This document shows, piece by piece, positions 3,714-64,000 of a stretch of DNA of 64,000 nucleotides. Position 1 is the stretch's first letter, and every line of letters begins with the position of its first letter. The translations under genes and the position numbers were made by a program. This stretch comes from Fidelibacterota bacterium (GTDB lineage: Bacteria > Fidelibacterota > UBA8477 > JABMPR01), in the NCBI GenBank assembly GCA_016784025.1, contig JADHVL010000002.1:52490-116489 (forward strand). Direction: 5' to 3'. The notes beneath the pieces are model-generated. The model was given only the letters and a program-made list of their open reading frames with translations. It was not told the DNA's origin and ran no database searches.

Positions 3714-3724
3714 GTCTGAGGCGA

Positions 3725-6016: not shown

Positions 6017-6039
6017 AGATAGATCGTTTTACTAAAATA

Positions 6040-7101: not shown

Positions 7102-7113
7102 TCAGGAGTTCTA

Positions 7114-26448: not shown

Positions 26449-26631
26449 GATCCCTGAGAAATTTTAATCGCAGCCAATAAAAGCTGGAAGCATATTCAAC
26501 GTGATGTCCAGTATTGTATCTTCTTATTTTATCTAAACCTACGACTCTACCAAACCATGTTTTATATTGACAATTATTAATTGTGATATATATTCTCATC
26601 ATTAAGATTCAATGACGACCGGGGAGATTGT

Positions 26632-27180
26632 TTGAGAAATATATATCTAATTCTATTGGTGGCAGGTTTATCATCTTGTGGTTTGCCCCCCAAAGCGGAT
26701 TCAAATCCGCACCACTCATCAAGGCGAGCTCACACAGGTAAATACATCACTGAACAGACACATGTTGCCGGTAGTCGCAATCTCTTTGTCCAGCCTGACG
26801 GCAAACATTGTCTTAACTCCAGTAAAGCAGTGACAGAATATTTTAATGAGCGCCATCGAGAACGTAATCGAGATGCTGTTTTTATTATTCTCCTTGATGG
26901 AAAAAACCAGGTTTTAAATATGGATGAGTTAGGCTCAGAAATCTTCACAGCACCATCAATTTACATGTCGGAAGTGACACAAAAAGCAACCGACATTGAA
27001 GCCACCTCTGTGATTCTTGTACAATGCCTCCCCACACGATCATCAACACCCTACAATAACGACCGAGAGCTTTCAAAAAATTTGAAACTGGCTCTTGGAA
27101 CCATCAATGTGGGCTTGCTTGATCATCTTATTATTGGCCGCAATAAGTGCTTTTCCTTTGCTGACAATCAACTTCTATAA
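26632..27180 (+). CDS. Degenerate RadC-like JAB-domain paralog with a lipoprotein signal peptide (predicted pseudo-enzyme)
   Basis: About 45% identical to the C-terminal 120 aa of the upstream RadC, but the JAMM motif is replaced by QCLPTRSSTPYNNDRELS. N-terminus MRNIYLILLVAGLSSCG has an LSSC lipobox. TTG start at 26632 with GGGGAG 5 nt upstream. Confidence 0.5.
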   Translation: MRNIYLILLVAGLSSCGLPPKADSNPHHSSRRAHTGKYITEQTHVAGSRNLFVQPDGKHCLNSSKAVTEYFNERHRERNRDAVFIILLDGKNQVLNMDELGSEIFTAPSIYMSEVTQKATDIEATSVILVQCLPTRSSTPYNNDRELSKNLKLALGTINVGLLDHLIIGRNKCFSFADNQLL

Positions 27181-28750: not shown

Positions 28751-30022
28751 CTATCTCCCAAAATCATTATTTCGCATTGATCGCCCGGCCAGAAATCCCG
28801 TTGACCAACTAGAGGTCAAATTATAGCCACCGGTTTCACCGTTTACATCAATAACTTCACCGGCAAAATATAGGTTTGATGTTAATTTTGATTCCATGGT
28901 TGTGGGATCTATCTCCTTCAGTGAAACACCACCAGATGTAACGATGGCACGATCATAAGAATCGTGACCAATGACCTGCATGGGAAATTCTTTCAAGAGC
29001 ATTCTCAAGCGTTTACGCTCTTCTCCAGTGACTTGATGCAACTTTTTAGCAGGATCTATTTCCAGCAGATCCACAAAAAGGTCGATCATTTTTAGGGGTA
29101 AAAGGGATTTCAATAGGCTTCTAAAATTCTGCTTACTATTATTTGATAACTCTCGAAGCAGTCGCTGATCCAATTTTTTGTGATCCAAAGCTGGTTTAAG
29201 ATCAATTTTAATTTGGACTTCCTTCGTGGACTCCAGCATGGCCACCAGGGTTTCACTTAAGGTCAGAATAATGGGACCTGTCACACCTTTTCGAGTGAAC
29301 ATCATTTCCCCAAACATTTCAGCGACTTTTTTACCTTCATCCCAGATTGAGAGTGAAATATTTCGCAGACTTACACCCATCACCCGTTTTGCAGTGTCAC
29401 CGGCAGTTAAGACAGGCACCAGAGATGGAGCCGTATCTACAATAGTATGGTCAAAGGCCTTAGCCATGGTGTATCCATCACCCGTTGATCCAGTTGCCGG
29501 GTATCCCAAGCCTCCAGAGCATATACACACTTGATCCGCCAGAACTTGCGTCTGGTGTTCTCCCTGTTTCACCTGCAGAACATATTGGCCCCCATCAATT
29601 TTTTGAATTCCAGTCACATGTGTTTTCATGGCAATAGGGATATTTAAATCACTTAGTTTTTTTTCAAATGCTACAACAATATCTGTCGCTCGATCACTTT
29701 CGCAGAAGTATCGCCCTCCCCTCTCCAGCTTGGTAGGAACCCCCAGATCATTTATGTATTTGAGCAAATCATGATTGAAAAATTGTGAAAACGCATACTT
29801 GAGAAAGCGACCTTTTTTTCCAAACCGATTCAGGAAGCTTTGCATGCTCTCCTCGTTGGTGATATTGCAGCGTCCCTTGCCTGAGATACGCAATTTGAGA
29901 CCCGTTTTGTGCATTTTTTCCAGGATGACTATGCTGTGATTAGGATTGAACGCCTCAACCCCTGCAATGAGACCTGCTGGTCCAGCGCCAATAATGACGG
30001 TATTGTAGTGGGGCTCTAGCAT
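28751..30022 (-). CDS. HI0933/BaiN-family NAD(P)/FAD-dependent flavoprotein
   Basis: VIIGAGPAGLIAG dinucleotide-binding motif and GKGRCNITN family signature. Confidence 0.8.
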   Translation of the reverse strand: MLEPHYNTVIIGAGPAGLIAGVEAFNPNHSIVILEKMHKTGLKLRISGKGRCNITNEESMQSFLNRFGKKGRFLKYAFSQFFNHDLLKYINDLGVPTKLERGGRYFCESDRATDIVVAFEKKLSDLNIPIAMKTHVTGIQKIDGGQYVLQVKQGEHQTQVLADQVCICSGGLGYPATGSTGDGYTMAKAFDHTIVDTAPSLVPVLTAGDTAKRVMGVSLRNISLSIWDEGKKVAEMFGEMMFTRKGVTGPIILTLSETLVAMLESTKEVQIKIDLKPALDHKKLDQRLLRELSNNSKQNFRSLLKSLLPLKMIDLFVDLLEIDPAKKLHQVTGEERKRLRMLLKEFPMQVIGHDSYDRAIVTSGGVSLKEIDPTTMESKLTSNLYFAGEVIDVNGETGGYNLTSSWSTGFLAGRSMRNNDFGR

Positions 30023-38264: not shown

Positions 38265-41200
38265 CTAACGGATCAAATATACTTTCTTCAAGCGACTCCA
38301 CACCTTTCCGGCTTGGTCATCGAATAATAACTTCATGATATAGAGGCCTGTCACTGCCTTTCCACCATAATTAGCCTCCCCATCCCAAAGCACTTGTCCC
38401 CGGTGACCTACTGGTTTTATTTGCACTGGTTCTGCAATCTTCCGGCCGGCCATATCAAACACCATAACAGACATCAGTCCATGTTCAAATGGCAACTCAT
38501 AGTGAATAGCGATTTGATCAGCATGACCATCCCCATTGGGTGTAAAGGGGTTTGGATCCAGGTCAACGACTAGTTCTGATGAGAGGACATCCAGATAGAG
38601 ACTATTCTCTGCTCCAGGAGTTGAGCCCCAATCGTCAATACAAACACTCCAGTTTCCAGTGTACTGTCCCGAAACCTCTGGTCGAATTCGTTCCAGGGAG
38701 CGTCCCAGCACTAACTCCGTTGATGGACTATAAGACACGTCATCCATGTGGATTTTTTGTGGGTCAAATATAATAATCAAATCTTCAGAATTATTAAGTG
38801 TGGGAAAGTGCAGGATCCCCTGATAAATCCCACTATGTAATGCTGGTCCCAGAGATTGATCATCCCCTATCACCAGATACCCATCACCTTCCAACAATAG
38901 ACTGGTATCGGAGATACTGATTCCTGATCCCGAATTGTCTGCAATGAGCCACCCCAGCATGTCCACGGTATCAGTACTTCTGTTGTAAATCTCTATCCAC
39001 TCATTCTGGTCATTCGTAGGAAGCGGCATGATTTCATTTATTACAAGCGGTGAAGTGTTTTCCGAAATAAATAACCGCTGAATATGTGTGTTATCCCCGG
39101 GTATTCCATCTCCCTCAGATTGAACAACAACTTCAAGAGATATCCAGCCAGAAGATTCTGAAATAAGTTCAATATCCCAGGATAAAGTATCCCCAGCGTC
39201 AATGGGTGGCAGCATCTCTGACCATTCCCCAATCTCAGTTCTATTGTGTTGTGTATTGAGACTCAACACAGCATTCTCAACTAGACTCACACCAGCATTG
39301 ATTATAGATATCCCAGCCAAAAATGAAGCATCCCTCCACAGAATCGAATCTAGAATAACCACATCCTGGACCGCGAGGTTATTGGGCGGTATGAGCATTG
39401 AGTTTTGCCGACCAGGAGTAATACCAAGCGGATCCTGACATACCGACCAACTGGACTCCAATGCCTGGTCTTTCCACAGCGCCAGACGCTCCAGACTTTT
39501 GCCAGGTTCATCATTTGGCGGTGCGAGATAAGCATGTTCAATCATCCTGTGCCCCAGAGGATCCAGGATAACAATTGAATCAGAACTATTATTCAGACTA
39601 GGCCAGGAAGATAGCTCACAGATCTTGGCAGAAGCGGGTGCCCAATCCACCAACTTGATAGCATCACCTGTCCATAAAAACAGACTGTCTGGTTGAATGA
39701 GGAAACTGGACATCACTTCACCCCTACTCCCACTGCCATCCCTAAAACTCCAACCCTTCAGATCTATTTGCATTGAACTGATGTTTACAAATTCGAGAAA
39801 TTCAACCTGGTCCTCATGAGGGAGATAGTGAATCTCATTGATTGCAATTTGGCCAGGCGAGTAACCCAATACTACCTGAACTGAGGTATCAGCAAGAACT
39901 TCACCTTCATGAATCAAGCGGATTGGGATTTCGTTATAACCTGGCCAGAGGGAAGTGCTGGGAAATATGAGCGAATCTGATCCAAAACTTGACAGAACCC
40001 CATGCCAGTAAATATCCGCATCAGATTCAAGTTCAAGCGAATACAGAGTGTCTATCCCCAGATTTTGAAACCCAAGAAACACTTCAGCCTGGGTTAGACC
40101 AATCGATGTGGGTGTCTCTACACGAATTTCATTAATTCGAATTTCCACTGGAAGCAGATGTCTGGTGTTCATACTAGAAGGGGTTCCACCATCTACATGG
40201 GTGCTGGCAACCCAGTTTATCTCCTCATAGGGATAAATATCTGGATGACGCCGTTCCAGGGAAGTAGCAGACTCGCCCCAACTTCCTCGATAAAACACTG
40301 AAGCCACGAGTTGACCGGTGGCATCAAATAAACGAACTGAATCAGATGAGGTGTTCAGGGCGGGCCAAGAATTGAGTTCAAGACCTTCTCTGGGCTCCAC
40401 ACCAAAATAATTTGTCATATTTGAGGAAGCACACAGGGATAAATAGTCAAATGAGTCAATAAATAGAAGACTATCGCTAATGAGGTGTCGAGTTTGATTC
40501 GCATCTGACATCGTCCAGCCTTGTAATGAAACTTCCCCTCCGCTTCTATTCTGAAGTTCTATCCACTCTCCCTGTTGTTCTGGCGATGGACTAAACATGA
40601 TCTCAGTGATGCTGATGATATCCTTGGGATATGGCCCTATTATTTGAAACCTGAGGGAATCATCTTCTGCAATTTCATCGTTTTCAACGAGGACTCTGGC
40701 TTCCAGTTGATGCAACCCAGGAACCAGAGAAAATAAGGTTAGGGGTATTTGAAGCTCTTCCTGTGTAATCAGTTGGGAATTGAAGTGAACATTAAGGTCC
40801 CACTCCTGCTCATCTTTTTCACCATTTTGATTATCATCACGATAGACGGAAACATCGAATTCAGAGACCAGATACTCCCCCAGGTTTTTGATGTGGAGTA
40901 GGATTTCAACAGGTTCTGAGTTCAATAACGACTCGTATTCAATTCCAATTAAACTCAGGTTTATCAGGGGTGGCGTAACTGAATTGCGATACCCTGGAGT
41001 CCCGTTAATATCAATTGACTGAAGCCATGAGCTCAATGAATCAGCCGAGCTAACAGAGACCCGCTCCCAGGAGTACCCGTTTTCAGTTGAGGTTGTCCAT
41101 GACATTTCACTTGAACTAGATGAATCTGGACTGCGAATGATTACAGATTCACCTCCATTGGAAAGCCCTCCACTCCCAAAGCTTGCATCTGTGGAAATAG

Positions 41201-41510
41201 TATAGACAGGAAGAGAATCATTTGTGATATCAGGGTATGGTCCAGTTAGAAAATTGTATCCAGGATCCATGATAAGAGCATAGTGAGAAGGTTGAATCCA
41301 AATTGGACCTGATAAATGGGAGATGGTATCCACTCCATTTCCATCGCTGAGAACCCAGCCATTGATTTGCATCACATGATCTGTGGCATTAAATATCTCT
41401 ATGAATTCGTTTTCATATTCTGATCCCTGAGGATTTGACATCACTTCAGAGATACGTATGTCATTGGCATGTAAGCATATAGCCAACAACACAAGGCATG
41501 TCTTGTGCAT
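38265..41510 (-). CDS. Large secreted protein with four lamin-tail domains (LTD) and a T9SS C-terminal sorting domain
   Basis: Four repeats of the LTD pattern (I.I.E.M.P....E.IEi.N.s...v.l.GW.lsD). Signal peptide. C-terminus ...GHRGQVLWDGEANYGGKAVTGLYIMKLLFDDQAGKVWSRLKKVYLIR resembles a type-A T9SS CTD. Confidence 0.7.
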   Translation of the reverse strand: MHKTCLVLLAICLHANDIRISEVMSNPQGSEYENEFIEIFNATDHVMQINGWVLSDGNGVDTISHLSGPIWIQPSHYALIMDPGYNFLTGPYPDITNDSLPVYTISTDASFGSGGLSNGGESVIIRSPDSSSSSEMSWTTSTENGYSWERVSVSSADSLSSWLQSIDINGTPGYRNSVTPPLINLSLIGIEYESLLNSEPVEILLHIKNLGEYLVSEFDVSVYRDDNQNGEKDEQEWDLNVHFNSQLITQEELQIPLTLFSLVPGLHQLEARVLVENDEIAEDDSLRFQIIGPYPKDIISITEIMFSPSPEQQGEWIELQNRSGGEVSLQGWTMSDANQTRHLISDSLLFIDSFDYLSLCASSNMTNYFGVEPREGLELNSWPALNTSSDSVRLFDATGQLVASVFYRGSWGESATSLERRHPDIYPYEEINWVASTHVDGGTPSSMNTRHLLPVEIRINEIRVETPTSIGLTQAEVFLGFQNLGIDTLYSLELESDADIYWHGVLSSFGSDSLIFPSTSLWPGYNEIPIRLIHEGEVLADTSVQVVLGYSPGQIAINEIHYLPHEDQVEFLEFVNISSMQIDLKGWSFRDGSGSRGEVMSSFLIQPDSLFLWTGDAIKLVDWAPASAKICELSSWPSLNNSSDSIVILDPLGHRMIEHAYLAPPNDEPGKSLERLALWKDQALESSWSVCQDPLGITPGRQNSMLIPPNNLAVQDVVILDSILWRDASFLAGISIINAGVSLVENAVLSLNTQHNRTEIGEWSEMLPPIDAGDTLSWDIELISESSGWISLEVVVQSEGDGIPGDNTHIQRLFISENTSPLVINEIMPLPTNDQNEWIEIYNRSTDTVDMLGWLIADNSGSGISISDTSLLLEGDGYLVIGDDQSLGPALHSGIYQGILHFPTLNNSEDLIIIFDPQKIHMDDVSYSPSTELVLGRSLERIRPEVSGQYTGNWSVCIDDWGSTPGAENSLYLDVLSSELVVDLDPNPFTPNGDGHADQIAIHYELPFEHGLMSVMVFDMAGRKIAEPVQIKPVGHRGQVLWDGEANYGGKAVTGLYIMKLLFDDQAGKVWSRLKKVYLIR

Positions 41511-48908: not shown

Positions 48909-50123
48909 TTAATTAAGCTTTCCTGCAATAAATGCTGTGGTCCAGGCTGCTTGAAAATTGTATCCGCCGGTGATGCCGTCAATGTCCAGGATCTCCCCGG
49001 CAAAATATAGATTCTCACACGCTTTGCTCTGCATTGATTTCCCATCGATACTGTCCAGACTCACCCCTCCACAGGTCACAAACTCATCCTTAAACCCTGT
49101 TTTTCCAGATACTGAATATGAGTCGTTGGTAAGGACTGTGACCAACTTATTTAGCCCCCTCTTTCCAAGTTCACTCCACCTTTTCGTCTGAGGAAGCCCA
49201 CTTTTATTGAGCAGATAACGCCACAATCTATCCGGTAAACCAAAGGGTCTAATATTAGGTAAGAGCTTGCGAGCATGTTCTTCAACCAAATCATTTAAAT
49301 GACTCAAAACGAGTTCATGATTGGCTTGATCCAACCAATTAACCCTGATATCAAAGTTATAGTCTTTTTCATTAAAGATTCTGGCACCAAAAGCTGAAAG
49401 CTTCAGAATCGCCGGTCCACTAAAGCCCCAGTGCGTGATAAGTAGGGGTCCTCTTGTTTTTAAACTGGTTCCTGGAATGCTGACCAGCACAGGATCCACT
49501 GCTACACCTGTTAATTCCACAATGGCTTCATTAGGCATATTAAATGTGAAGAGGGAAGGCACAGGCTCAACGATCTCATGGCCAAGCTTTTCTATCCATT
49601 CCAGACCCTGGGATCTGGGTGATCCCCCACTGGCTATGATGACCTTATCAAAACTCCGGGGAGGTAAATCCTGTCTGGAAAAACTCAATTCTAGTTGTTC
49701 ACCTCTGGGAGAAATTGCCTCTATCCCCGACCAATATTCGCACACTATTCCCTGAGCTTCCGCCTGATCCAGCAGACAATTAATAATACTGCTTGAATCC
49801 TGAGATACGGGGAAAACGCGCATATCATCCTGGATGAATAGCGGCACTCCTCTTGATTCAAACCACGCCATGGTGTGTTTTGTGTTAAACGTTCTCAGCG
49901 CTCGTTTCATGAGAGCCTTTCCGCGTGGGTAGCCTGCGGCCAGCGCGCTGATAGATGTATTTCCGTTGGTGACATTACATCTACCCCCTCCGGAAATTTT
50001 GACTTTGGCCAGGGAAAAACGTGTCTTTTCAAATATAACCACTTTGGCATCAGGAAAGTTTTCTTTGACTGAGATGGCTGAAAAATAGCCTGCTGCTCCT
50101 CCCCCTATGATGGCAACATCCAC
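48909..50123 (-). CDS. HI0933/BaiN-family flavoprotein (second paralog)
   Basis: VAIIGGGAAGYFSA and GGGRCNVTN. Confidence 0.8.
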   Translation of the reverse strand: MDVAIIGGGAAGYFSAISVKENFPDAKVVIFEKTRFSLAKVKISGGGRCNVTNGNTSISALAAGYPRGKALMKRALRTFNTKHTMAWFESRGVPLFIQDDMRVFPVSQDSSSIINCLLDQAEAQGIVCEYWSGIEAISPRGEQLELSFSRQDLPPRSFDKVIIASGGSPRSQGLEWIEKLGHEIVEPVPSLFTFNMPNEAIVELTGVAVDPVLVSIPGTSLKTRGPLLITHWGFSGPAILKLSAFGARIFNEKDYNFDIRVNWLDQANHELVLSHLNDLVEEHARKLLPNIRPFGLPDRLWRYLLNKSGLPQTKRWSELGKRGLNKLVTVLTNDSYSVSGKTGFKDEFVTCGGVSLDSIDGKSMQSKACENLYFAGEILDIDGITGGYNFQAAWTTAFIAGKLN

Positions 50124-53130: not shown

Positions 53131-53496
53131 TTATTCATTATTCTCTGGCTCAGCCCAAACGGCAAATTCGTTTCCGTTGGGATCAGAAAAGTGAAAACGT
53201 CTCCCTCCTGGAAACGAAAATATTGGTTTCATGATCTTACCTTTTGCCTGCTCAACTTTCGCTAGTGTTTCCTCGAGTCTATCACTGAAGAAGACGATCA
53301 GTACACTTCCTGAATTTGTCTCGGCTGTCAGGTCTGATTTAAAAAATCCCACATCAATTCCGGCATTGGCGCAGGCGACATAATCGGGTCCATAATCAAC
53401 AAATGACCAATCAAACACCTCTCCGAAGAAGGTTTTGGTTTGCTCCATATCTTTTGCAGGAAATTCCAGATAATTAATTTTTTCATGATTACTCAT
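53131..53496 (-). CDS. VOC-family (glyoxalase-like) protein
   Basis: Paired beta-alpha-beta VOC modules. The MSNHEK start is preferred; overlaps the upstream gene by 8 nt. Confidence 0.65.
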   Translation of the reverse strand: MSNHEKINYLEFPAKDMEQTKTFFGEVFDWSFVDYGPDYVACANAGIDVGFFKSDLTAETNSGSVLIVFFSDRLEETLAKVEQAKGKIMKPIFSFPGGRRFHFSDPNGNEFAVWAEPENNE

Positions 53497-55150
53497 TTGA
53501 TACTCCTCCAAAAGCCACACCACTGAGATCTGCCATGTCTCGTTTCCACGTAGTAAGATCGTTTTGATTAAACTGATTTAAATGGGTATGTCCACAGGCT
53601 CTGGCCATGACTTGCATCAATTCAGTAGATGCTCTGAAAAAGTTGTTCAGCTGTTGAGCTCCCTTTTCAATTTTAATGCGTGCTCTCAACTCCGGTTTCT
53701 GCGTCGCAATCCCTACAGGGCAATTGTTGGTATGGCAGGCACGCATCCCGAGACACCCGATGGCCTGGATGGCAGAATTTGAGACTGCAATGGCATCGGC
53801 ACCCAAAGCCAGGGCTTTGATAAAATCTGCAGGGAGGCGCAATCCCCCGGTGATAATCAGTGATATGTCTTGGCGACCCTGCTGATCCAGATAACGGCGC
53901 GCACGAGCAAGAGCAGGTATGGTTGGAATGGATATATTGTCTCTGAATATCAGAGGTGCAGCGCCAGTTCCTCCGCCCCTACCATCCAGGATGATGTAGT
54001 CCACACCAATATCCAGAGCTGCCTGAATATCTTTTTCGATATGCTGAGCAGAAAGTTTTACACCGATTGGTATTCCACCGGTGGCCTCTCTGACCTCCTC
54101 AGCAAACCGCTTATAATCTTCTATGTTCTCCCAGTCTGGAAAACGAGGTGGTGAGATGGCTGGTTCTCCTTCAGCCAGACCACGTACTTCTGCAATCTTG
54201 CCCTGTACTTTATTTCCAGGAAGATGACCGCCTGTTCCAGTTTTTGCCCCTTGCCCGCACTTAAAATGAAAGGCCTGACATATCTGGACCTTATCCATGG
54301 AATAGCCAAATCGAGCTGAAGCTAATTCGTAGAGATAGCGGCTATTGGCCGCCTGTTCATCGGGAAGCATACCGCCCTCACCTGAGCAGATTCCAGTTCC
54401 TGCCAGCTCTGCCCCTTTTGCCAGGGAGACTTTTGCTTCTTCAGAGAGCGCGCCAAAACTCATGTCTGATACAAAGAGGGGTCGTTCCAGAACCAGAGGT
54501 TTCCTGGCATTGGGACCAATAACTACCTCTGTTCCAACCTTAGCATCATCCAGGAGGGGTACTTTATGCAGTTGAGCAGTAAGCAATTGAATGTCTTTCC
54601 AATTGGGTAAATCCTGTCTGGGAACCCCCATGGCATCGACTCGTCCATGATGACCGGTTTCACTCAAACCTTTTTCAGTTAAATGTTGAATATATTGGGC
54701 ATGTGGCTCCTCTGGAGCACCATGAATATCTTGATATAAACCTTGATATGCATCTCGGTTATAGGGCTGAGGATTATGATCTTCCCAGCTTTTAATTTCG
54801 TCTTCATCTACCCAAACCTGATCTTTTTCAATCCAGACTGAAAATTTTTGAAGCTTCTCATCATTATTGTAAGCACTCACACCTGACTTGTAATTGTAAT
54901 CCCAATTATGCAAGCCACAGATAAGGTCATTCCCTTGAATATGCCCGTCAGACAAGAGCGCTCCCCTATGGTGACAACGGCCATAAAGCACAGAGACTTC
55001 GTCCTTCTCTGAAAATCGTGTGATGACAAGATCTACATTTCCCACCAGCGCATAGGTGGGTTCCAGTGGTTTTAATTCTGAGAAATGAGCAATTGAAACT
55101 TTATGCATATATGATCCTATTGATTTTGACGACAATTTAAATTTGGACAA
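53489..55150 (-). CDS. Fusion of a Rieske [2Fe-2S] domain with a glutamate-synthase-like FMN/Fe-S (GltB domain-2 type) domain
   Basis: CHHRGALLSDGHIQGNDLICGLHNWDY is a Rieske CxH...CxxH motif. The C-terminal ~400 aa resemble GltS FMN-binding domain proteins (ILDGRGGGTGAAP). Confidence 0.7.
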   Translation of the reverse strand: MSKFKLSSKSIGSYMHKVSIAHFSELKPLEPTYALVGNVDLVITRFSEKDEVSVLYGRCHHRGALLSDGHIQGNDLICGLHNWDYNYKSGVSAYNNDEKLQKFSVWIEKDQVWVDEDEIKSWEDHNPQPYNRDAYQGLYQDIHGAPEEPHAQYIQHLTEKGLSETGHHGRVDAMGVPRQDLPNWKDIQLLTAQLHKVPLLDDAKVGTEVVIGPNARKPLVLERPLFVSDMSFGALSEEAKVSLAKGAELAGTGICSGEGGMLPDEQAANSRYLYELASARFGYSMDKVQICQAFHFKCGQGAKTGTGGHLPGNKVQGKIAEVRGLAEGEPAISPPRFPDWENIEDYKRFAEEVREATGGIPIGVKLSAQHIEKDIQAALDIGVDYIILDGRGGGTGAAPLIFRDNISIPTIPALARARRYLDQQGRQDISLIITGGLRLPADFIKALALGADAIAVSNSAIQAIGCLGMRACHTNNCPVGIATQKPELRARIKIEKGAQQLNNFFRASTELMQVMARACGHTHLNQFNQNDLTTWKRDMADLSGVAFGGVSNE

Positions 55151-55279: not shown

Positions 55280-55828
55280 TCATTCTGAAACCGCTATAAG
55301 TGAAAAGCGTTTGATGGTTTCGAAATCAAGGTGATCACCTTCATCCTTACCATAATAAGCTTCCTGAATTATACCCTCTCGATCAACCAGAAAATCAGCC
55401 GGCATAATAGTCAGACCCCCAGTAAACAAGTTTGGAAGGTACCCTTTTATAAACATTCCTTTCAGAAGCGTTGGCAGGCGCATAATCATACCTGTAAAAA
55501 AACCCAGGACTGAATTCTCAATTCCATATTTTCTATAATACTTGCCATGTGGATCTGCCAGTATTGGGAATGAGGCTTGGTGTTTTTCTGTATGGCGAGT
55601 GAGTTGCTCAAGGTCAGCATTAAATATGGCCACTGTGGTGAAATCCTCACCAAATTCATCGAAACGTTGTACCAGGCTGTTCACTCTCAAATTACAGAAA
55701 GGACAAGATGCAAATCGATAGAATGATAGCATATAAGGTTTACCTGAGAATGAATCCAAATCGAACTCCGTTCTGGCTATATCCATCAATTTGATGTTCT
55801 TTACCTTTTCCCCGCTTTTGAGTCTCAC
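55280..55828 (-). CDS. AhpC/TSA-redoxin family thiol-disulfide oxidoreductase
   Basis: FYRFASCPFCNLRV is the redoxin CxxC active site in thioredoxin-fold context. Confidence 0.6.
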   Translation of the reverse strand: MRLKSGEKVKNIKLMDIARTEFDLDSFSGKPYMLSFYRFASCPFCNLRVNSLVQRFDEFGEDFTTVAIFNADLEQLTRHTEKHQASFPILADPHGKYYRKYGIENSVLGFFTGMIMRLPTLLKGMFIKGYLPNLFTGGLTIMPADFLVDREGIIQEAYYGKDEGDHLDFETIKRFSLIAVSE

Positions 55829-56364
55829 CTTTCCCCACTTTCATCATTTTTTTTCGTATGGACCCAGTCATCCCCATTCAGATTCATCCTGAGAAGTGTC
55901 CATCCCTCATCTTCATGATTTGGGATCGTCTTATATATTTTGAAACCAAACTGCTGGTAACAGTGAATTGCTGATTTATTAAATGCGAATACCCCCAGGT
56001 CTATGTCTTCCAACTCTAAATCTTCGAAGGCGAAATGGAGGGCCAGCCGTATCATCATTTTGCCCCAGCCCTGTCCCCTATATTGTTTTGGACCTATGAG
56101 TACTCTGGCAAGCACGGCACTTTTCTCAACATAATTCACCCCCATGAGTTCGATATGACCGATAGGGGTTCCATCCAGCAGGGCTTTGAACATAAACTGA
56201 GGGGGACGATCCGTTCTAGTCACTTCTAAAGAGGCAATGAGCTGCTTTTCATCCAGGGGGAACATGTATTTTGGGCCTGACCACTGTAATAAAAAGTCTG
56301 CATCTGGCACCCAATCAATCAGTCTCTGGATATCGCTTGCCTCAAATTTTTCCAGAGTGATCAT
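55825..56364 (-). CDS. GNAT N-acetyltransferase
   Basis: RGQGWGKMMIRLALHFAFE is GNAT motif A; 4-nt overlap with the downstream redoxin. Confidence 0.7.
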   Translation of the reverse strand: MITLEKFEASDIQRLIDWVPDADFLLQWSGPKYMFPLDEKQLIASLEVTRTDRPPQFMFKALLDGTPIGHIELMGVNYVEKSAVLARVLIGPKQYRGQGWGKMMIRLALHFAFEDLELEDIDLGVFAFNKSAIHCYQQFGFKIYKTIPNHEDEGWTLLRMNLNGDDWVHTKKNDESGER

Positions 56365-56522: not shown

Positions 56523-57692
56523 TTAGAAGCCCATTAAACCGCAACAGCGACTGCATTGAGGTAGTGTGCCACCCTCCTTATTTAGAAGGGTTCTGAATTC
56601 ACGGAAACGGTCATTGTTCCATAATTCAAGTAAGGGGGTTTCCTGAATATTACCCACTTTGACATCGATATAATCACGACAGGTCACAACATCTCCATTG
56701 GGCATGATATCTATCATCATGTAGGGGGCAACACAGGGTCCGAAGCCCAGGAAATCCTCGGGCTGTTCATAGTAGGGTACGATTTTTTCGGTATCCATAA
56801 AGGGTACTGGAAACCAGCCAAAAGGATACTTCTTCTTTGATATCTTTTCAATGGTCTGTTTTACATGCTCAGCCTTGATAGTGGTATTTTGACCGATATA
56901 GGATTTCCAGGTTTCTGCATCTACACCCATTTCTCTCTTTAGGATATCGGCGTGCTGTTCACCAATCTCCTGGGTTGTGAACCAGGATAGATACAGGATA
57001 AGACCATCAGGACCCAGATCGGCAACTGTATCAAACATACTCTCGAGATGATCCTGATTGGTATCCGATACTGTTGCAGAGATCAAGAAATAGGGATCAG
57101 GTTTTTTCCCGCGCTCTTCAAGCAGCAATTTGATGCCTCTGGAAGTCTTTTTGAATGTCCCTGGGACTCCTCTGGCCTGATCATGAATATCCTCAGGACC
57201 ATCCAGAGAACAGGTCAGCATATCCCATTTTTGTTCCACTATTTGCTTGGCATTGCGCTCCAGGGCTGCACCATTTGTGATGACGTACACATAACAACCT
57301 TTTTCTTTGATATAGGCTGTCAGTTTAAACAGATCCTTGTAGAGCAGGGCCTCACCGCCGGTTATATAGAAAATGGGCTTATAGTGAGCAGTCTCGTCGA
57401 CTATTTTTTTATAGTCTTCAAAGGTCAATTCTGAAAGCAGGTGATCACCGGCTCCTTCATTCATATAACCATTGTCACCAAACTGACCACAGATAGCACA
57501 ACGTTGATTACAGCGATTGGTAATTCGTAGACTGATTTGATAAGGAGGACGTCTGGCGACTCCCAGCCCTGCTTTTAGATCACCATTAACATGAAGATGC
57601 TTACGCCAGGCGGCACGGGTGACAACGGGTAAATATTTTAATCTGGGGGCGAGTGCTTTGGCAAACATACCAACAGGGAGACGACTTAACAT
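56523..57692 (-). CDS. Radical SAM enzyme with C-terminal SPASM-like Cys cluster
   Basis: CNQRCAICG is the CxxxCxxC radical-SAM motif; the C-terminal CRDY...CSRCCGL Cys cluster fits a SPASM/twitch domain. Confidence 0.7.
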   Translation of the reverse strand: MLSRLPVGMFAKALAPRLKYLPVVTRAAWRKHLHVNGDLKAGLGVARRPPYQISLRITNRCNQRCAICGQFGDNGYMNEGAGDHLLSELTFEDYKKIVDETAHYKPIFYITGGEALLYKDLFKLTAYIKEKGCYVYVITNGAALERNAKQIVEQKWDMLTCSLDGPEDIHDQARGVPGTFKKTSRGIKLLLEERGKKPDPYFLISATVSDTNQDHLESMFDTVADLGPDGLILYLSWFTTQEIGEQHADILKREMGVDAETWKSYIGQNTTIKAEHVKQTIEKISKKKYPFGWFPVPFMDTEKIVPYYEQPEDFLGFGPCVAPYMMIDIMPNGDVVTCRDYIDVKVGNIQETPLLELWNNDRFREFRTLLNKEGGTLPQCSRCCGLMGF

Positions 57693-57934
57693 ATAATGAT
57701 TCCTAATCTATGACAATTCCGATTCTCTACAGGAGCCTCCTATATTAGTCTTTATCGCAAATAATCAGATAGTGAGTTTCATCTTTTTTTGATCAAATCA
57801 AATATAGCAATTGGCTGCCATCAATAATTGCCAAGATTTCTTTCTAATTCTCCTTGAATAATACTAGATTACAGACCGGCTCAAAAAAGAAACCGACTAG
57901 AATTGATCATATCTATGTACTTGAGAATAAGACT

Positions 57935-59587
57935 ATGACATATAACTCCTTTTCCCTCTCTGGAAACATTGTTGATGTATTAAATCAACGCATTTTCCCT
58001 GGAACCATTCATGTTGAAAACGGCAGAATCAAGTCTGTCGTTGAAGAATCTGTTTCAGAAACGCACTGCATACTTCCAGGACTCATCGATGCCCATATTC
58101 ACATTGAAAGTTCCATGCTGGTTCCCACAGAATTCGCCCGAGCTGCAGTTAATCACGGGACAGTTGCCACTGTTTCTGATCCTCATGAAATAGCCAATGT
58201 TCTGGGCATGCGCGGCGTAGAATTTATGCTTGAAAATGCAGAGCAAACCCCTTTTAAGTTCCACTTCAGTGCGCCTTCCTGCGTCCCCGCCACACCCTTT
58301 GAAACAGCAGGTGCAGAACTGTCCGCTCCTGAAATAGAATCTCTATTGCAGCGACCAGATATTGTCAGTCTATCAGAAATGATGAATGTTCCAGGTGTTT
58401 TGAATGACGCTGAGGACGTGAACGAAAAATTGAGACTCGCCCGAGTTGCTGGAAAAGTTGTTGATGGTCATGCACCCGGATTACGGGGTGAAGCAGTTAA
58501 GAAGTATGTTGAAGCAGGCATTACCACAGATCATGAATGCTTTAGTCTGGAAGAGGCTCTGGAAAAATTATCTCTAGGTATGCGCGTACAAATCCGCGAA
58601 GGATCTGCCGCTCGCAATCTGAATGATTTGATGTCTCTCCTCAATGAGCATTTTAAAGAATGTATGCTGTGCAGCGATGACAAACATCCCGACGATCTGG
58701 CAGAAGGTCATATCAATCTCATGGTTAAAAGAGCCATCGCGGCAGGAATTGATCCACTCAAGGTTTTATGGAGCGCTTCGGTTACACCAGTAAAAACCTA
58801 TGGACTTAATGTCGGACTGTTACAAACCAATGACCCTGCTGATCTGATGATCGTTGATAATCTGACAGATTTTAATGTTCTGCGAACCTATATAACGGGG
58901 AATCTTGTAGCTGAGCAAGGCACCACAAAGCTTGAATCTCTACCCGTTCTGGCAGTGAATCGCTTTGAAGCGGAACTTCAAAATCCTGATGCTTTTAAAA
59001 TCAAAACAAATCTATCTGAAGTACCGGTGATTGAAGTTATTGATGGACAGCTCGTAACAAAAAAACACCTGTGGCATCCGGACCTGGATTCAGAAGGATT
59101 TATCAAGACGAATACGGATCAGGACATATTGAAAATTGCTGTTTTGAATAGATACTCTCTCTCCAAACCCGCAGTAGCCTTGATTAAAAATTTTGGTCTG
59201 AAAGAAGGAGCTATTGCTTCATCTGTTGCCCACGATTCACACAATATTGTTGCTGTAGGCACCTCGGATGAAAGTCTGGCAAGAGCCATTAACCTCATCA
59301 TTGAGAACAATGGTGGAGTTTTGGCAGTCAACAGTAAAGGTGATCACGTTTTACCACTACCCGTAGCTGGGATTATGAGTGATGATGATGCCTTTAAGGT
59401 TGGCAAAAGATATGGCGAGATGGATGATATAGCTAAAGAGATGGGCTCACAACTCAGTGCACCGTATATGACCCTGTCATTTATGGCACTATTGGTAATT
59501 CCCGATATCAAACTTAGTGATAAGGGACTATTTGATGGTAAAACATTCCAATTCATAGATGCCTTTGAAACTGCTGGGGCATTATAG
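57935..59587 (+). CDS. ade: Adenine deaminase
   Basis: GLIDAHIHIESSML matches the adenine deaminase metal-binding motif (B. subtilis AdeC GFIDGHVHIESSML). About 550 aa; the Met at 57935 is preferred over the track start at 57854. Confidence 0.8.
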   Translation: MTYNSFSLSGNIVDVLNQRIFPGTIHVENGRIKSVVEESVSETHCILPGLIDAHIHIESSMLVPTEFARAAVNHGTVATVSDPHEIANVLGMRGVEFMLENAEQTPFKFHFSAPSCVPATPFETAGAELSAPEIESLLQRPDIVSLSEMMNVPGVLNDAEDVNEKLRLARVAGKVVDGHAPGLRGEAVKKYVEAGITTDHECFSLEEALEKLSLGMRVQIREGSAARNLNDLMSLLNEHFKECMLCSDDKHPDDLAEGHINLMVKRAIAAGIDPLKVLWSASVTPVKTYGLNVGLLQTNDPADLMIVDNLTDFNVLRTYITGNLVAEQGTTKLESLPVLAVNRFEAELQNPDAFKIKTNLSEVPVIEVIDGQLVTKKHLWHPDLDSEGFIKTNTDQDILKIAVLNRYSLSKPAVALIKNFGLKEGAIASSVAHDSHNIVAVGTSDESLARAINLIIENNGGVLAVNSKGDHVLPLPVAGIMSDDDAFKVGKRYGEMDDIAKEMGSQLSAPYMTLSFMALLVIPDIKLSDKGLFDGKTFQFIDAFETAGAL

Positions 59588-59593
59588 ACTAAG

Positions 59594-61858
59594 ATGCCAC
59601 TATCTACTCAAGTGATTGGTACAAGACTTAAACGGGTTGATGCTCGTGGCAAAACCACGGGTGAAACCAAGTTTCTTACTGATATCAAAGTAGATAATAT
59701 GCTCCATGGAGCTCCGGTATTCTCTCAGGTAGCCTTTGGGAAGCTCCTGGGGATAGATACTCGGGTGGCAGAAAATGACCCCGATTATATCGCATTCTTC
59801 TCAGCCAAGGATATTCCCGGAGAAAATCAAGTCGGTGTCATTCTGGAAGATCAACCACTCATAGCTAGTGATGTGGTTCGCTATGTTGGCGACAGTGTGG
59901 GTATTCTCATTGCTAAAACAGCGGAATCAGCTCAGCGTCTTTCTAGGTTAGTTCTCGTAAATATCGAGCCCTCCCACCCCATCTTCTCCATCAATGATAG
60001 CCGGGATGCTGCGGATAATTTTATCCACGAAACCAATCTTGCTTGTGAGCATCAAGTAAAACGGGGAGACCTTGATAGCGCATTTAAAGAAGCGGATCAC
60101 ATTATCGATGGCCATTTTGAGACCCCCTTCCAGGAACACTATTATCTTGAGCCACAAGCTTGCATTGCTCAAGTGACCCCTGAGGGTGGAATTGAGATTC
60201 TAGGATCCATTCAGTGTCCCTTCTATGTTCAAAAAGCGGTTTCCAAAGCCCTGGCTATTCCCTTTTCCAAGATACGAGTGGAACAAGCAACCACAGGAGG
60301 GGCCTTCGGAGGCAAGGAGGATATTCCCTCAGAAACCTGCACTCGTGCAGCTCTGGCAGCTCTGATTCTCAAACGACCCATTAAAATGGTATACGATCGA
60401 ACTACTGATGTTCAACTCACCAGTAAGCGCCACCCTTTTCAAATGCACTACAAAGTTGGGGTATCTGAGTCAGGAAAACTGCTTGCTGCTGAAATTCTCC
60501 TCGAGGAAAATGCTGGAGCTTATGCCACACTATCATCCGTGGTCTCATATCGTTCAGCCATGCAGGCCATGGGACCGTATGTCATCGATAACATCTCAGT
60601 CGAGTCTAAATCCTATTATACCAATCTACCTCCTACAGGAGCTTTCCGTGGATTCGGATCGCCTCAGGCAGCCTTTGGTCACGAACGGATGATGGATGTC
60701 ATTGCAGCAGAACTGGATATGGATCCAATAGAGTTACGTTTGCAAAATATCTTGAAAGTCGACACTTCAACACTTACAGGTCATCATCTAAAAAGCAGTG
60801 TTGGGGCGGAAGAAACCCTGGTAACAGCGGCCAGTGCCTGTGACTGGAAAAAGCGTGATTCAAACCAAGATGCTCGCTGGAAAACTGGATATGGGATTTC
60901 TCTGATTCACTATGGGAATTGTCTCGGTGCAGCAGGATGGTTCATGGATGGCAGTGGTGTCAGGATCAAGCTCCACCGAGATGGTTCCATTTCAGTCGCC
61001 TTTGGTCTCATCGAGATGGGTCAGGGCGCACTTACCGTCGTCCAGCAAATGACAGCGGAGGCCCTGGGTGTAGAACCTGCAAGAATCACTGTACTGCCCA
61101 CAGATACAGATCAGGTACCTGATAGTGGTCCTTCAGTTGCCAGCCGGAATGTGGTCATGACGGGAAATGCCATTCGAAACGCAGCCAGTAAATTATTACC
61201 TGTGTTAAAGGAAGCCGCCGCCGAACTCATGCAATGTGACCTGAAAGAAATAAATATTGAACGGGGTGAAGTAAGTAATATTCGGAATAGCGAAACACTA
61301 AGTTTTACAGAACTCAGCAATTATCTCTACTTGTCCAACCGACCTATGGATGTGTTGGGCTGGTGGCATGTTCCGGAGCTTGATTATGATGCAGCAAACG
61401 GAGTTGGTGAAGCCTATTTCACCTATTCCTATGCTACTCATATCGCACGAGTCAAAGTAGACACCCTCACAGGTCAAGTGAAGGTGGATAAAATATGGGC
61501 GTCACATGATGTGGGAAGAGCAATTAATCCTGCTGGTTTGGAAGCTCAAATTGAGGGGGGTACTGTCCAGGGGATTGGCTGGGCACTCACAGAGGATTTC
61601 AAATTTGAGGGGGGTAAAGTCTTAACCGACAATCTCACAACCTATCTATTACCAACAGCCCTGGATGTGGGTGAAATCGAATCAATTCTGGTGGAAGATC
61701 CTGAACCTGAGGGTCCCTGGGGTGCTAAAGGTATCGGAGAGCCTGCCATCATTCCAACTGCAGCTGCTATAGCTAATGCAGTGAGTAATGCCCTAGGAAA
61801 ATCAGTTACTCACATTCCAATAAAACCGGATTACATTTTAGAAATGGCAGGTGATTGA
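59594..61858 (+). CDS. Xanthine dehydrogenase / aldehyde oxidase family molybdopterin-binding subunit
   Basis: a/b-hammerhead N-domain and MoCo-binding domains (GGAFGGKED, active-site Glu region near GIGEPA). Confidence 0.85.
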   Translation: MPLSTQVIGTRLKRVDARGKTTGETKFLTDIKVDNMLHGAPVFSQVAFGKLLGIDTRVAENDPDYIAFFSAKDIPGENQVGVILEDQPLIASDVVRYVGDSVGILIAKTAESAQRLSRLVLVNIEPSHPIFSINDSRDAADNFIHETNLACEHQVKRGDLDSAFKEADHIIDGHFETPFQEHYYLEPQACIAQVTPEGGIEILGSIQCPFYVQKAVSKALAIPFSKIRVEQATTGGAFGGKEDIPSETCTRAALAALILKRPIKMVYDRTTDVQLTSKRHPFQMHYKVGVSESGKLLAAEILLEENAGAYATLSSVVSYRSAMQAMGPYVIDNISVESKSYYTNLPPTGAFRGFGSPQAAFGHERMMDVIAAELDMDPIELRLQNILKVDTSTLTGHHLKSSVGAEETLVTAASACDWKKRDSNQDARWKTGYGISLIHYGNCLGAAGWFMDGSGVRIKLHRDGSISVAFGLIEMGQGALTVVQQMTAEALGVEPARITVLPTDTDQVPDSGPSVASRNVVMTGNAIRNAASKLLPVLKEAAAELMQCDLKEINIERGEVSNIRNSETLSFTELSNYLYLSNRPMDVLGWWHVPELDYDAANGVGEAYFTYSYATHIARVKVDTLTGQVKVDKIWASHDVGRAINPAGLEAQIEGGTVQGIGWALTEDFKFEGGKVLTDNLTTYLLPTALDVGEIESILVEDPEPEGPWGAKGIGEPAIIPTAAAIANAVSNALGKSVTHIPIKPDYILEMAGD

Positions 61859-63170
61859 GATGGGACAACTCTTACTACACAATTTGCGAATAATCGATCC
61901 ATTTGGTGAACGAGAGTTTCTGGAGCATGCATCCATTCTCATTGAAGATGAAGTCATCAAATTTATTGGACGCGGTTTCTCACACGTTGGCTTTGAGGGA
62001 CAAATTTTGGACATGGAGGGCAAAACGGTCCTACCAGGAATTATCAATGCCCACACCCATCTTTATTCAACGCTGGCCATGGGAATGCACCCACCTCAGA
62101 AAACACCAAAAAATTTTGTTGAACATCTCGAAGAGGTCTGGTGGAAATTAGATCGTGGTCTGGATAGGGCGTCTATGCTGGCCTCGTTTGAAGCCGGGCT
62201 TATGGATTGCATTCAGAATGGTACCACAACCATCATTGATCATCACGCAAGTCCAAACCTTGTTGAAGGTTCCTTGGATATTCTGGCAGCGGTAGCGAAA
62301 TCCTTTGGAGTAAACATCAGTCTCTGTTTTGAAAGTTCAGACAGAAATGGTGAGGCGAATTTTAAAGATGAGTTAGCAGAAAATATCCGCGCCATAAAGA
62401 AGTATACCTCCAATCCTCACATCTCACCCCGCCTTGGGCTGCATGCTTCTTTTACACTTTCAGATGAATCATTAGAGAGTGTGAGCAAAGCTCTGAAGGA
62501 CTTCCCTGATTGTGGTATTCATATCCATGTTGCTGAGGACCTTGCTGATGAAAAGGATGCCCAGGCCAGAGGGTATCGTTCAGTGATTCAGCGGTTGGAT
62601 GATTTCAACCTACTCTCCAATCAGTCTCTGATTATTCATGGTATTTTTATGACCCGCGAAGATCGCCATATCCTGCTAAAACATGGTTGCAAACTTGTTC
62701 ACAATCCGACTTCAAATGCCAATAATCAGGTGGGTGTGCTGGAGACCGAAATTATCGAATCCATGGGACCAGGATTAGGGACTGATGGCATGCAGAACAA
62801 CATGCTGAAGGAAGCCAAAGAAGGTACGCTGGTGCGGGGGGCTACTGAAAGTCCACGCGTTGACTATCTGGAGCTCCTGTTTCAGAACAACCCAGATATT
62901 GCCGTAAAAATATTCGGAAAATTAATCGGGCACATTGAGGAAGAAGCCCAGGCTGACCTGGTATTCTATGATTATGAGCCTCGAACAGAGTTGAATGCTG
63001 ACAATTATAGCTCCCATCTGCTCTTTGGACTGGGAAAACCCTCAGATGTCATGACTCGGGGAAGATTTCGTCTACGAAGCAAAAAACTGGTAGGCATGGA
63101 TGAATCCCAAATTCGTGAAAACTCCCGCAAACAAAGCAAGCGTCTCTGGTCAGCCATGAAGGCACTATAA
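61851..63170 (+). CDS. ssnA: SsnA-family aminohydrolase (amidohydrolase superfamily)
   Basis: Strong similarity to E. coli SsnA as recalled: VWWKLDRGLD vs LWWRLDRALD, IIDHHASP vs VIDHHASP, and LGTDG. 8-nt overlap with the preceding gene. Confidence 0.75.
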   Translation: MIEMGQLLLHNLRIIDPFGEREFLEHASILIEDEVIKFIGRGFSHVGFEGQILDMEGKTVLPGIINAHTHLYSTLAMGMHPPQKTPKNFVEHLEEVWWKLDRGLDRASMLASFEAGLMDCIQNGTTTIIDHHASPNLVEGSLDILAAVAKSFGVNISLCFESSDRNGEANFKDELAENIRAIKKYTSNPHISPRLGLHASFTLSDESLESVSKALKDFPDCGIHIHVAEDLADEKDAQARGYRSVIQRLDDFNLLSNQSLIIHGIFMTREDRHILLKHGCKLVHNPTSNANNQVGVLETEIIESMGPGLGTDGMQNNMLKEAKEGTLVRGATESPRVDYLELLFQNNPDIAVKIFGKLIGHIEEEAQADLVFYDYEPRTELNADNYSSHLLFGLGKPSDVMTRGRFRLRSKKLVGMDESQIRENSRKQSKRLWSAMKAL

Positions 63171-63205
63171 GTGCAAAGTGAATGTAATAACAAGAAAGCA
63201 ACCAT

Positions 63206-64000
63206 ATGAACATTGATTTCCAACAGATACTCAACCAGGCCGAAAAATATCGTCCGGAGATTTCCAGGTTTTTGCGAGATATGATTGCCATCCCTAGCGA
63301 AAGTACCCAGGAAGAACTTGCCATCTTGCGTATCAAAGAGGAGATGGAAAAAGTTGGTTTTGATAAGATAGAGATTGATGAGATGGGTAATATTTATGGT
63401 ACCATTGGCCATGGCTCTCATGTCATCGCCATGGATGCTCACATCGATACAGTGGGTGTTGGCAACCTTGAAAACTGGAATGTAGATCCCTACGAGGGCT
63501 TTGAAGATGATGAAATCATCATGGGGCGGGGAGCTTCAGACCAGGAAGGTGGCATGGCCAGCATGGTCTATGCTGGAAAAATTATCAAAGATCTTGGACT
63601 GGAAGCTGACTATACATTAGTGGTTACTGGAACGGTTCAGGAAGAGGATTGTGATGGCCTGTGTTGGCAGTACATCATGGATAATAAGAAGATTCAACCT
63701 GAATTTGTGGTGAGCACTGAGCCCACCTCCTGCAGAATTTATCGAGGTCAACGTGGGCGTATGGAAATCAAGGTTACCACCTCTGGGATCAGCGCCCATG
63801 GGTCAGCACCAGAACGAGGTGACAATGCCATTTACAAGATGGCACCTATTCTCCTGGAACTTCAAGAATTAAATACTCGCCTGGCAGACCATGATTTTCT
63901 AGGCAGGGGTTCCCTCACCGTATCTGAAGTATTCTTCACATCACCTTCACGATGTGCTGTTGCTGATGGTTGCTCAATTTCTGTAGATAGACGTCTCACT
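63206..64000 (+). CDS. ygeY: YgeY-family M20 peptidase / metallo-hydrolase, truncated by the window end
   Basis: Very high similarity to E. coli YgeY as recalled ([74 protein letters not shown]). Confidence 0.8.

Follow-up and report, generated by a model that had tools for sequence, protein, structure and literature searches.

A probable operon for reductive purine degradation through 2,8-dioxopurine in marine Fidelibacterota

The reductive urate pathway has so far been investigated in gut bacteria, and it was reconstituted in 2025 (PMC12507026; bioRxiv 10.1101/2025.04.24.650524). Urate is converted to 2,8-dioxopurine by XdhD-YgfM in E. coli or by XdhAC, the 2,8-dioxopurine dehydrogenase (DOPDH), in C. 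sporogenes, and the ring is reduced by YgfK. The product of HyuA is 2,3-diureidopropionate, from which the two ureido groups are removed by YgeW, coupled to the carbamate kinase YqeA, and by YgeY; YgeX then converts 2,3-diaminopropionate to pyruvate. The molybdenum (Mo) enzymes of C. sporogenes need SelD (all PMC12507026; bioRxiv 10.1101/2025.04.24.650524). Here we analyze a window of 64,000 nucleotides, meaning the whole stretch of DNA under study, from contig JADHVL010000002.1 (positions 52,490 to 116,489) of assembly GCA_016784025.1. Its 3' end holds the first four genes of an operon of about 20 kb in an uncultured marine member of the Fidelibacterota (Marinimicrobia, SAR406), and this operon probably encodes anaerobic reductive purine degradation via the 2,8-dioxopurine (“yanthine”) pathway. 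The preliminary description of this DNA, which had recognized a purine-catabolism cluster marked by SsnA and YgeY, called the biochemistry of such systems largely unresolved, a statement that the reconstitution has left out of date.

Four genes are tightly packed in the final 6 kb of the window:

57935-59587, plus strand: ade, adenine deaminase, 550 aa, assigned by TIGR01178.

59594-61858, plus strand: XDH1, Mo subunit of the xanthine dehydrogenase (XDH) family, 754 aa, with three Pfam Mo-subunit domains.

61860-63170, plus strand: SsnA-like amidohydrolase, 436 aa, matched best by the SsnA models but below their cut-offs.

63206-64000, plus strand, running past the window end: YgeY, M20 ureido-group hydrolase, N-terminal 265 of 405 aa, assigned to the YgeY family (TIGR03526, NF009555) by TIGR03526.

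Families were called by comparing NCBIfam hidden Markov model (HMM) scores with the curated cut-offs and by Pfam domains, and the resulting assignments exceed by far what chance would give. By exact-protein look-up, each of the four models is present in over 20 public contigs. Ade reaches 621.5 bits with TIGR01178 (cut-off 472.5, E 1e-186, profile positions 7-551 of 552) and contains the Pfam domains Amidohydro_1 (PF01979, 127 bits) and Adenine_deam_C (PF13382, 193 bits). Even as a 265-aa fragment, YgeY scores 455.9 bits with TIGR03526 against a cut-off of 321.5, and the full protein, taken from contig L010, scores 683.8 bits; with 70% identity, it is indeed strongly similar to its E. coli counterpart, as had been claimed from the sequence at first reading. 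For the SsnA-like gene, the longest open reading frame (ORF) begins with GTG at 61851 and the protein in the public assembly with ATG at 61860; the ATG version is on record, whereas an exact-protein look-up of the GTG version gives no match. With the ATG start, the spacers between ade, XDH1, the SsnA-like gene, and ygeY are 6, 1, and 35 nt long. The coordinates, the strand, and the family tests thus agree with the four co-directional genes of the preliminary description, but as the ATG start leaves 1 nt after the XDH stop codon, the partial overlap that it mentioned (8 nt) exists only if the GTG start is used.

That the cluster continues past the window end, as had been expected, is borne out by three public contigs (L001, L007, and L010), which are identical to the window without a mismatch over 14,407 and 3,043 overlapping bases and add 9 kb. 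The window plus this extension comprises 73 kb and covers the sequence of this strain up to a position inside ygfK. The complete ygeY stops at a position equivalent to 64423 and is followed, on one strand and with spacers of 2 to 174 nt, by a 42-aa ORF, YgeW, two pyridoxal phosphate (PLP) enzymes of 487 and 413 aa (PALP487 and PALP413), an XDH iron-sulfur (FeS) subunit, a GxxExxY protein, an XDH flavin (FAD) subunit, a 92-aa membrane protein, and YgfK. YgeW scores 653 bits against a cut-off of 453 and YgfK 850 bits against 835, though only 844 of its 1093 aa are covered. With YgeW, YgfK, and the XDH FeS and FAD subunits, the extension confirms a purine-catabolism cluster of the SsnA/YgeY/YgeW/YgfK type; of the genes that the preliminary description had proposed to look for, ygfK, ygeW, and the one for a FAD subunit are present, whereas the cluster contains neither hyuA nor ygeX.

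When one genome per species is considered, the best matches to YgfK (88-92% identical) come from metagenome-assembled genomes of Candidatus Neomarinimicrobiota, a phylum now called Fidelibacterota, also known as Marinimicrobia or SAR406, and placed within the FCB group. Four species whose YgfK is 88-90% identical show what lies beyond ygfK. In a relative of about 90% identity (L012), YgfK is followed by a GxxExxY gene, an 8-oxoguanine deaminase, and a further set of enzyme subunits, namely a short FAD subunit resembling YgfM, one FeS subunit, and the second Mo subunit, here called XDH2, after which come the unrelated genes tag and dinB. The deaminase of the relatives reaches 609 bits against a cut-off of 532 and matches PDB entry 7WW2 with an E-value of 4e-129. 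Conservation was counted over 18 Marinimicrobia loci in which YgfK is flanked by 6 kb or more on either side: PALP487, PALP413, and the 8-oxoguanine deaminase occur in 18/18 of them, XDH2 in 17/18, YgeW in 12/18, YgeY in 10/18, and the carbamate kinase YqeA in 7/18. PALP487 and YgfK lie on the same strand in 51/51 loci, separated by a median gap of 1.4 kb. A metagenome scan for relatives of Ade (76-86% identical) yielded seven long loci, and the order ade-XDH1-SsnA-like-YgeY-YgeW-PALP487-PALP413-FeS1 is conserved in all seven, whereas the divergent genes upstream vary. Since ade heads the same gene order in every one of these relatives, the operon of this clade truly begins with it.

If the enzymes are assigned to steps by their homology to the characterized enzymes of E. 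coli and C. sporogenes, the following route can be drawn. Adenine would be deaminated to hypoxanthine by Ade, and XDH1, together with the downstream FeS and FAD subunits, would form a canonical XDH that oxidizes hypoxanthine and xanthine to urate; the downstream 8-oxoguanine deaminase would feed in 8-oxoguanine and perhaps guanine. The XdhD-like Mo enzyme with its YgfM-like FAD subunit, known from the relatives of about 90% identity, would take the 6-oxo group off urate to give 2,8-dioxopurine, YgfK would reduce the ring, and the SsnA-like hydrolase would open the six-membered ring. Once the hydantoin has been opened, YgeW would phosphorolyze one ureido group, releasing carbamoyl phosphate, and YgeY would hydrolyze the other, leaving 2,3-diaminopropionate. 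Finally, PALP487 and PALP413 may eliminate the β-substituent of diaminopropionate, or of ureido-alanine, to give pyruvate and ammonia.

For the amidohydrolase encoded between XDH1 and ygeY, the claim of strong similarity to E. coli SsnA did not hold, as identity amounts to 33% and the scores with both family models stay below the cut-offs (NF005540: 408.8 bits, cut-off 444; TIGR03314, which corresponds to IPR017700: 385.1 bits, cut-off 455.5). Scores of this kind were among the outcomes that the preliminary description had itself named as speaking against its reading, and they apply to SsnA but not to YgeY. Nevertheless, SsnA is by a wide margin its best family, the next one scoring 130 bits. 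The motifs HxHxYS, WWxLDR, IDHHASP, CFExxDR, HIHxAEDL, VHNxxSNxNNxVG, and LGTDG are common to both proteins, and the gene shares its operon with the adjacent XDH1 and with YgfK about 7.5 kb downstream. Judged from its sequence, the protein is a divergent member of the SsnA clade, and it would hydrolyze 2,8-dioxopurine after reduction, opening the pyrimidine ring to give ureidomethylhydantoin as expected of an SsnA enzyme. A search for a solved structure of an SsnA protein found none.

XDH1 contains the domains Ald_Xan_dh_C, MoCoBD_1, and MoCoBD_2 and passes none of the NCBIfam equivalog models, including those for XdhA, PucD, and the XdhB type; the best is XdhA (473 bits against a cut-off of 780), and it stays well below the Se_dep_XDH model TIGR03311 (443.5 against 830) and the XdhD-type model TIGR03313 (231.5 against 1102). 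Its nearest solved structure is chain B of the R. capsulatus XDH (E 5e-99), and equivalents of bovine Glu802, Arg880, Phe914, and Glu1261 are present in the segments GGAFGGKE, SYR320, FRGFG, and GIGEP, as aligned to Glu232 and Arg310 of the R. capsulatus enzyme. Its FeS and FAD partners are encoded beyond the window, at a distance of about 7 kb downstream, and the FAD partner resembles XdhB (29% identity over the full length). XDH2 of the relatives of about 90% identity, in contrast, has Gln and Val at the sites of Glu802 and Arg880, which is also the case for XdhA and XdhD of E. coli; its identity amounts to 38% with XdhD and 35% with XdhA, and its FAD subunit matches YgfM only. The XdhD-specific insertion with Glu606, which has been tied to the orientation of urate (PMC12507026), is found in XDH2 and not in XDH1. 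The canonical residues and the XdhB-like partner of XDH1, set against the Glu606 insertion and the YgfM-type FAD subunit of XDH2, are the reason why we take XDH1 most likely to be a feeder xanthine dehydrogenase and not the urate reductase, whereas XDH2 is read as the latter.

The two roles might also be swapped, with XDH1 acting as the 2,8-dioxopurine dehydrogenase that reduces urate and XDH2 as the xanthine dehydrogenase. This is a live rival, because the Bacteroidota enzyme encoded beside an SsnA-like gene, a fusion of FeS and Mo parts that scores 873 bits with TIGR03311 (cut-off 830), retains Glu802 and Arg880 as well; XDH1 in turn is encoded directly 5' of the SsnA-like gene, XDH2 is nearly as close to XdhA as to XdhD, and the “XdhD” of C. 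difficile, which has low homology to that of E. coli, was assigned by where its gene lies. However, the best matches of XDH1 are unfused canonical Mo subunits (363-368 bits), the fused type scoring lower (306-325 bits), and both the insertion and the YgfM-type subunit occur with XDH2 only. We therefore regard the swap as unlikely and keep XDH1 as the probable feeder enzyme.

In the preliminary description, SsnA and YgeY served as markers of selenium-dependent Mo hydroxylase systems, in which a labile selenium cofactor is derived from SelD. Such a dependence would be compatible with the proposed pathway: the DOPDH and XDH of C. sporogenes go inactive in a selD mutant, every cluster-bearing gut strain had SelD and YqeBC (bioRxiv 10.1101/2025.04.24.650524 or PMC12507026), and the families YgeY, YgeW, and YgfK were first defined through their linkage to selenium traits (PMC2276186). 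In contrast to E. coli, which has yqeB and yqeC within its cluster, a tblastn search with the E. coli proteins gave no match to selD, yqeB, or yqeC in the 73 kb, and the three genes are lacking in all 18 Marinimicrobia loci. The active site of XDH1 with Glu802 and Arg880 is canonical, like that of the sulfur-type enzymes of R. capsulatus and bovine origin, and together with the low Se_dep_XDH score this leaves a selenium link of the XDH in the window unsupported. For the system as a whole, we hold selenium dependence to be a possibility, and a rather doubtful one. For annotation, this means that the XDH of the window should not be called selenium-dependent and that “putative selenate reductase” for YgfK and “selenium metabolism protein” for SsnA are outdated names.

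Of the two PLP enzymes, PALP487 has weak similarity to CysK and cystathionine β-synthase (CBS) by sequence, and PALP413 is a ThrC-like enzyme with an N-terminal zinc ribbon. The PLP-binding lysine and the STGN and GSAGT loops of PALP487 are invariant, and Foldseek matches its predicted structure (pLDDT 87) to O-acetylserine sulfhydrylase, CBS, and β-cyanoalanine synthase; as this amounts to a generic CysK/CBS fold, no specific function could be gained from it. The substrates of these three enzymes are β-substituted alanines, as are diaminopropionate and albizziin. Since the fold class of PALP487 acts on such compounds, a role as terminal lyase in place of YgeX is chemically sensible. PALP413 scores 64.6 bits with the diaminopropionate ammonia-lyase model (cut-off 276), and in a BLAST comparison with YgeX the best identity was 28% over 203 aa.

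Several points weigh against the pathway as we propose it. Neither HyuA nor YgeX occurs in any of the 18 Marinimicrobia loci (0/18 for each), and tblastn with the E. coli proteins finds neither in the 73 kb; the published pathway is therefore incomplete within the cluster. Opening of the hydantoin has no candidate in the cluster and must be encoded elsewhere or be done by an amidohydrolase that is present. The downstream amidohydrolase of the TRZ/ATZ type was considered as a stand-in for HyuA and rejected, as it clearly belongs to the 8-oxoguanine deaminase family by the score and the 7WW2 match given above. The replacement of YgeX by PALP487 and PALP413 in the last step would be a reading of genomic context and fold class; TIGR00260, a generic model for threonine synthase, is passed by PALP413 as well (210 bits, cut-off 167), and near a close homolog of PALP487 in another genome (72% identical, L096) there is no purine-degradation gene except an XdhC-type chaperone. 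The XdhD-like XDH2 was seen only in relatives, even if these include species whose YgfK is 88-92% identical, the carbamate kinase YqeA was not found in the cluster of this strain, and no transporter or regulator was identified there. Finally, the SsnA-like protein lies under both family cut-offs, so that its substrate could differ.

Some of these points would also suit a quite different explanation, namely that the true substrate of YgfK, the SsnA-like protein, and the two PLP enzymes is another N-heterocycle or an amino acid and that the purine enzymes are mere neighbors. Besides the SsnA scores and the missing HyuA and YgeX, it could draw on homologs of PALP487 that sit away from YgfK and on YgfK homologs of about 50% identity in other phyla that have none of the other genes nearby (L040, L042, L050, and L052). 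We nevertheless consider it very improbable, given that YgeY shares 70% and YgeW 63% identity with their counterparts in the E. coli pathway, that three purine-feeding and two XDH-family enzymes are held in one operon across about 18 loci, and that spacers of only 1 to 35 nt connect ade, XDH1, the SsnA-like gene, and ygeY. Degradation of purines through 2,8-dioxopurine thus remains the reading that we prefer.

YgfK homologs of about 50% identity occur in Methylomirabilis, Ozemobacteraceae, Melainabacteria-like, and some Bacteroidota metagenome-assembled genomes, and at seven such loci (L040, L042, L050, L052, L055, L058, and L078) no XDH, SsnA, PLP enzyme, or YgeW/YgeY gene lies within 10 kb; reductases of the YgfK type may have other substrates. 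Variation is also seen among the Marinimicrobia themselves. A deeper lineage (L029 2716-4658; also L027, L028, L030, and L034) is without YgeY and YgeW, and loci of the L029 type carry instead two carbamoyltransferases of ordinary length, one resembling aspartate carbamoyltransferase (257 bits against 237) and one resembling ornithine carbamoyltransferase, plus a carbamate kinase. To judge from these genes, the lineage is a further sub-variant of the ureido-cleavage steps. Between ygeY and ygeW of the strain studied here, a spacer of 121 nt is called as a 42-aa ORF that overlaps both neighbors (L010 3463-3591, equal to window positions 64420-64548), and in L012 the spacer measures 69 nt and has no ORF; the 42-aa ORF is probably an inserted repeat and not a gene. 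The small GxxExxY gene (PDDEXK_3; TIGR04256, 125-141 bits) was seen at L010 8154-8570 (equal to window positions 69111-69527), L012 13338-13709, L097 9580-9969, and L083 13292-13672. Its position varies: this strain has it between the genes for the FeS and FAD subunits of the XDH, and the relative of 90% identity and Bacteroidota have it directly after ygfK; it looks like a mobile or repeatedly inserted gene that recurs beside ygfK.

Upstream of ade lie the following features:

57693-57934: AT-rich intergenic region of 242 bp, between the divergent radical SAM gene and ade.

56523-57692, minus strand: radical SAM/SPASM protein, divergent from ade.

55825-56364, minus strand: GNAT acetyltransferase, divergent from ade.

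55280-55828, minus strand: AhpC/TSA redoxin with a weak match to “SelL-related redox protein” (68.5 bits against a cut-off of 120).

The 242-bp region is presumed, from its place, to contain the promoter of the operon. An Rfam search of the window and its extension found no riboswitch (purine, xanthine, or other), the region upstream of ade matched no Rfam family of any kind even at E ≤ 1, and a scan for promoter and terminator consensus sequences was uninformative. The radical SAM/SPASM, GNAT, and AhpC-like genes were considered as members of the system and rejected, as they do not stand next to ade in relatives and score far under the cut-offs; they are probably unrelated to the purine operon.

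Positions 1-57692 of the window hold unrelated housekeeping genes, among which a few deserve mention. A surface-glycan block at 1330-8879, with IspD-like/short-chain dehydrogenase fusions, LicD, a family-29 sialyltransferase, a CMP-sugar synthetase, NeuB, and a Kdo-transferase-like protein, suggests by its gene content a decoration of the cell surface with nonulosonic acid. Two adjacent RadC genes are located at about 25765-27180, and two paralogous HI0933-like flavoproteins of the aminoacetone oxidase family are encoded 19 kb apart on the minus strand (28751-30022 and 48909-50123). On the same strand, a 1081-aa protein with a lamin-tail domain (LTD) as its sole recorded domain (38265-41510) adjoins an LPP20 lipoprotein and a LytTR two-component system, and a 539-aa protein (53489-55108) unites a Rieske [2Fe-2S] domain (PF00355) with a glutamate-synthase-type FMN domain (PF01645) in an unusual fusion, followed by a glyoxalase and a pirin.

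Although the pathway itself is known, its host, a free-living marine member of the Fidelibacterota, is new, and so is its form, with two PLP enzymes and without HyuA or YgeX nearby. Our literature search found no publication that links Marinimicrobia or SAR406 to the 2,8-dioxopurine pathway. Published surveys of its distribution used the SsnA family IPR017700 or BLAST thresholds against C. sporogenes proteins, and the main text of neither survey mentions Bacteroidota or the marine environment. As the SsnA-like proteins score below the TIGR03314 cut-off, such surveys would probably miss the FCB clade, going by the HMM score. At somewhat less than even confidence, we propose that the FCB group (Fidelibacterota, Bacteroidota, and Chlorobiota) shares an undescribed branch of the pathway in which a CysK/CBS-like (about 487 aa) and a ThrC-like (about 413 aa) PLP enzyme replace YgeX. 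In lineages that are also without YgeY, YgeW, or HyuA, the pair may bypass these steps, for example by direct elimination of urea or ammonia from β-ureido- or β-amino-alanine. If this is true, anaerobic purine degradation would be a trait of the abundant SAR406 bacteria of oxygen-minimum zones and of many Bacteroidales, beyond gut Bacillota and Enterobacteria, and if the PLP pair does complete the pathway, a clade of urate degraders is probably overlooked when such bacteria are currently counted by markers. The version described here is near-complete and strongly conserved in free-living marine Marinimicrobia; the bin names of close relatives suggest Saanich Inlet and similar low-oxygen waters, and the marine setting points to purines as a source of carbon, nitrogen, and energy in anoxic seawater. 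The two PLP enzymes, the divergent SsnA, and the three-subunit XdhD-like reductase are candidates for enzymology.

In comparison with the cluster of E. coli K-12 (ygeW-ygeX-ygeY-hyuA-yqeA ... ygfK-ssnA-ygfM-xdhD, b2870-b2881), the operon has YgeY (70% identical), YgeW (63%), YgfK (40%), and SsnA (33%) in common, as well as the Mo enzyme of the XdhD/YgfM type (38%, with the Glu606 insertion), here known from close relatives, and both clusters contain a guanine-type deaminase. HyuA, YgeX, YqeA, YqeB, YqeC, MocA, and the transporters of the E. coli cluster are absent here (tblastn, 73 kb), the SsnA homolog falls under the family cut-offs, and the XdhD-like enzyme consists of three subunits, whereas it is a fused FeS and Mo protein in E. 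coli. In addition, the operon contains ade, a canonical XDH, and two other PLP enzymes and is arranged as a single co-directional unit. With the clusters of C. sporogenes and C. difficile (XdhAC/DOPDH, YgfK or UacX, SsnA, HyuA, YgeW or UacY, YgeY, and YgeX), it has a common logic that leads from urate to 2,8-dioxopurine and then, by ring reduction and hydrolyses, to a C3 amino acid. The clostridial clusters illustrate that single steps can be replaced by non-homologous enzymes (UacX and UacY). Differences concern the DOPDH, which in the clostridia has its FeS and Mo parts fused, is without a FAD subunit, depends on selenium, and makes no use of NAD(P)H, and also HyuA and YgeX, which those clusters contain.

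XDH1 agrees with the R. capsulatus and bovine XDH in domain order and in the catalytic and substrate-binding residues named above. It differs from them in that the overall match is moderate, no XdhC chaperone is encoded nearby, and the Mo gene is separated from its partner genes by six unrelated genes, or seven if the doubtful 42-aa ORF is counted.

Uncharacterized clusters in Bacteroidota and Chlorobiota (for example L097, L062, and L075) consist of an XDH, YgfK, PLP enzymes of about 489 and 415 aa, a fused Mo enzyme of the TIGR03311 type, and an SsnA-like protein. Unlike in the operon described here, this fused protein is their second Mo enzyme, they also encode an XdhC chaperone and a MocA-like protein, HyuA occurs in some (L061, L072, L075, L086, and L090), and most are without nearby YgeY, YgeW, and 8-oxoguanine deaminase. 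After the SsnA-like gene, Bacteroidota clusters encode a conserved protein of 207 aa that matches neither NCBIfam nor Pfam (L075 15102-15725 and L097 18485-19108), with HyuA next to it in L075. Common to these clusters and the Fidelibacterota operon are SsnA-like proteins that also stay under the cut-offs (382-397 bits, and 340-397 bits for the Bacteroidota counterparts tested), a GxxExxY gene beside YgfK, and, above all, the trio of YgfK, a CysK-like, and a ThrC-like PLP enzyme. Within this trio, the ThrC-like enzymes are 41-47% identical, and the CysK-like enzyme, with 55-74% identity, is more conserved toward Bacteroidota and Chlorobiota than YgfK itself (about 50%).

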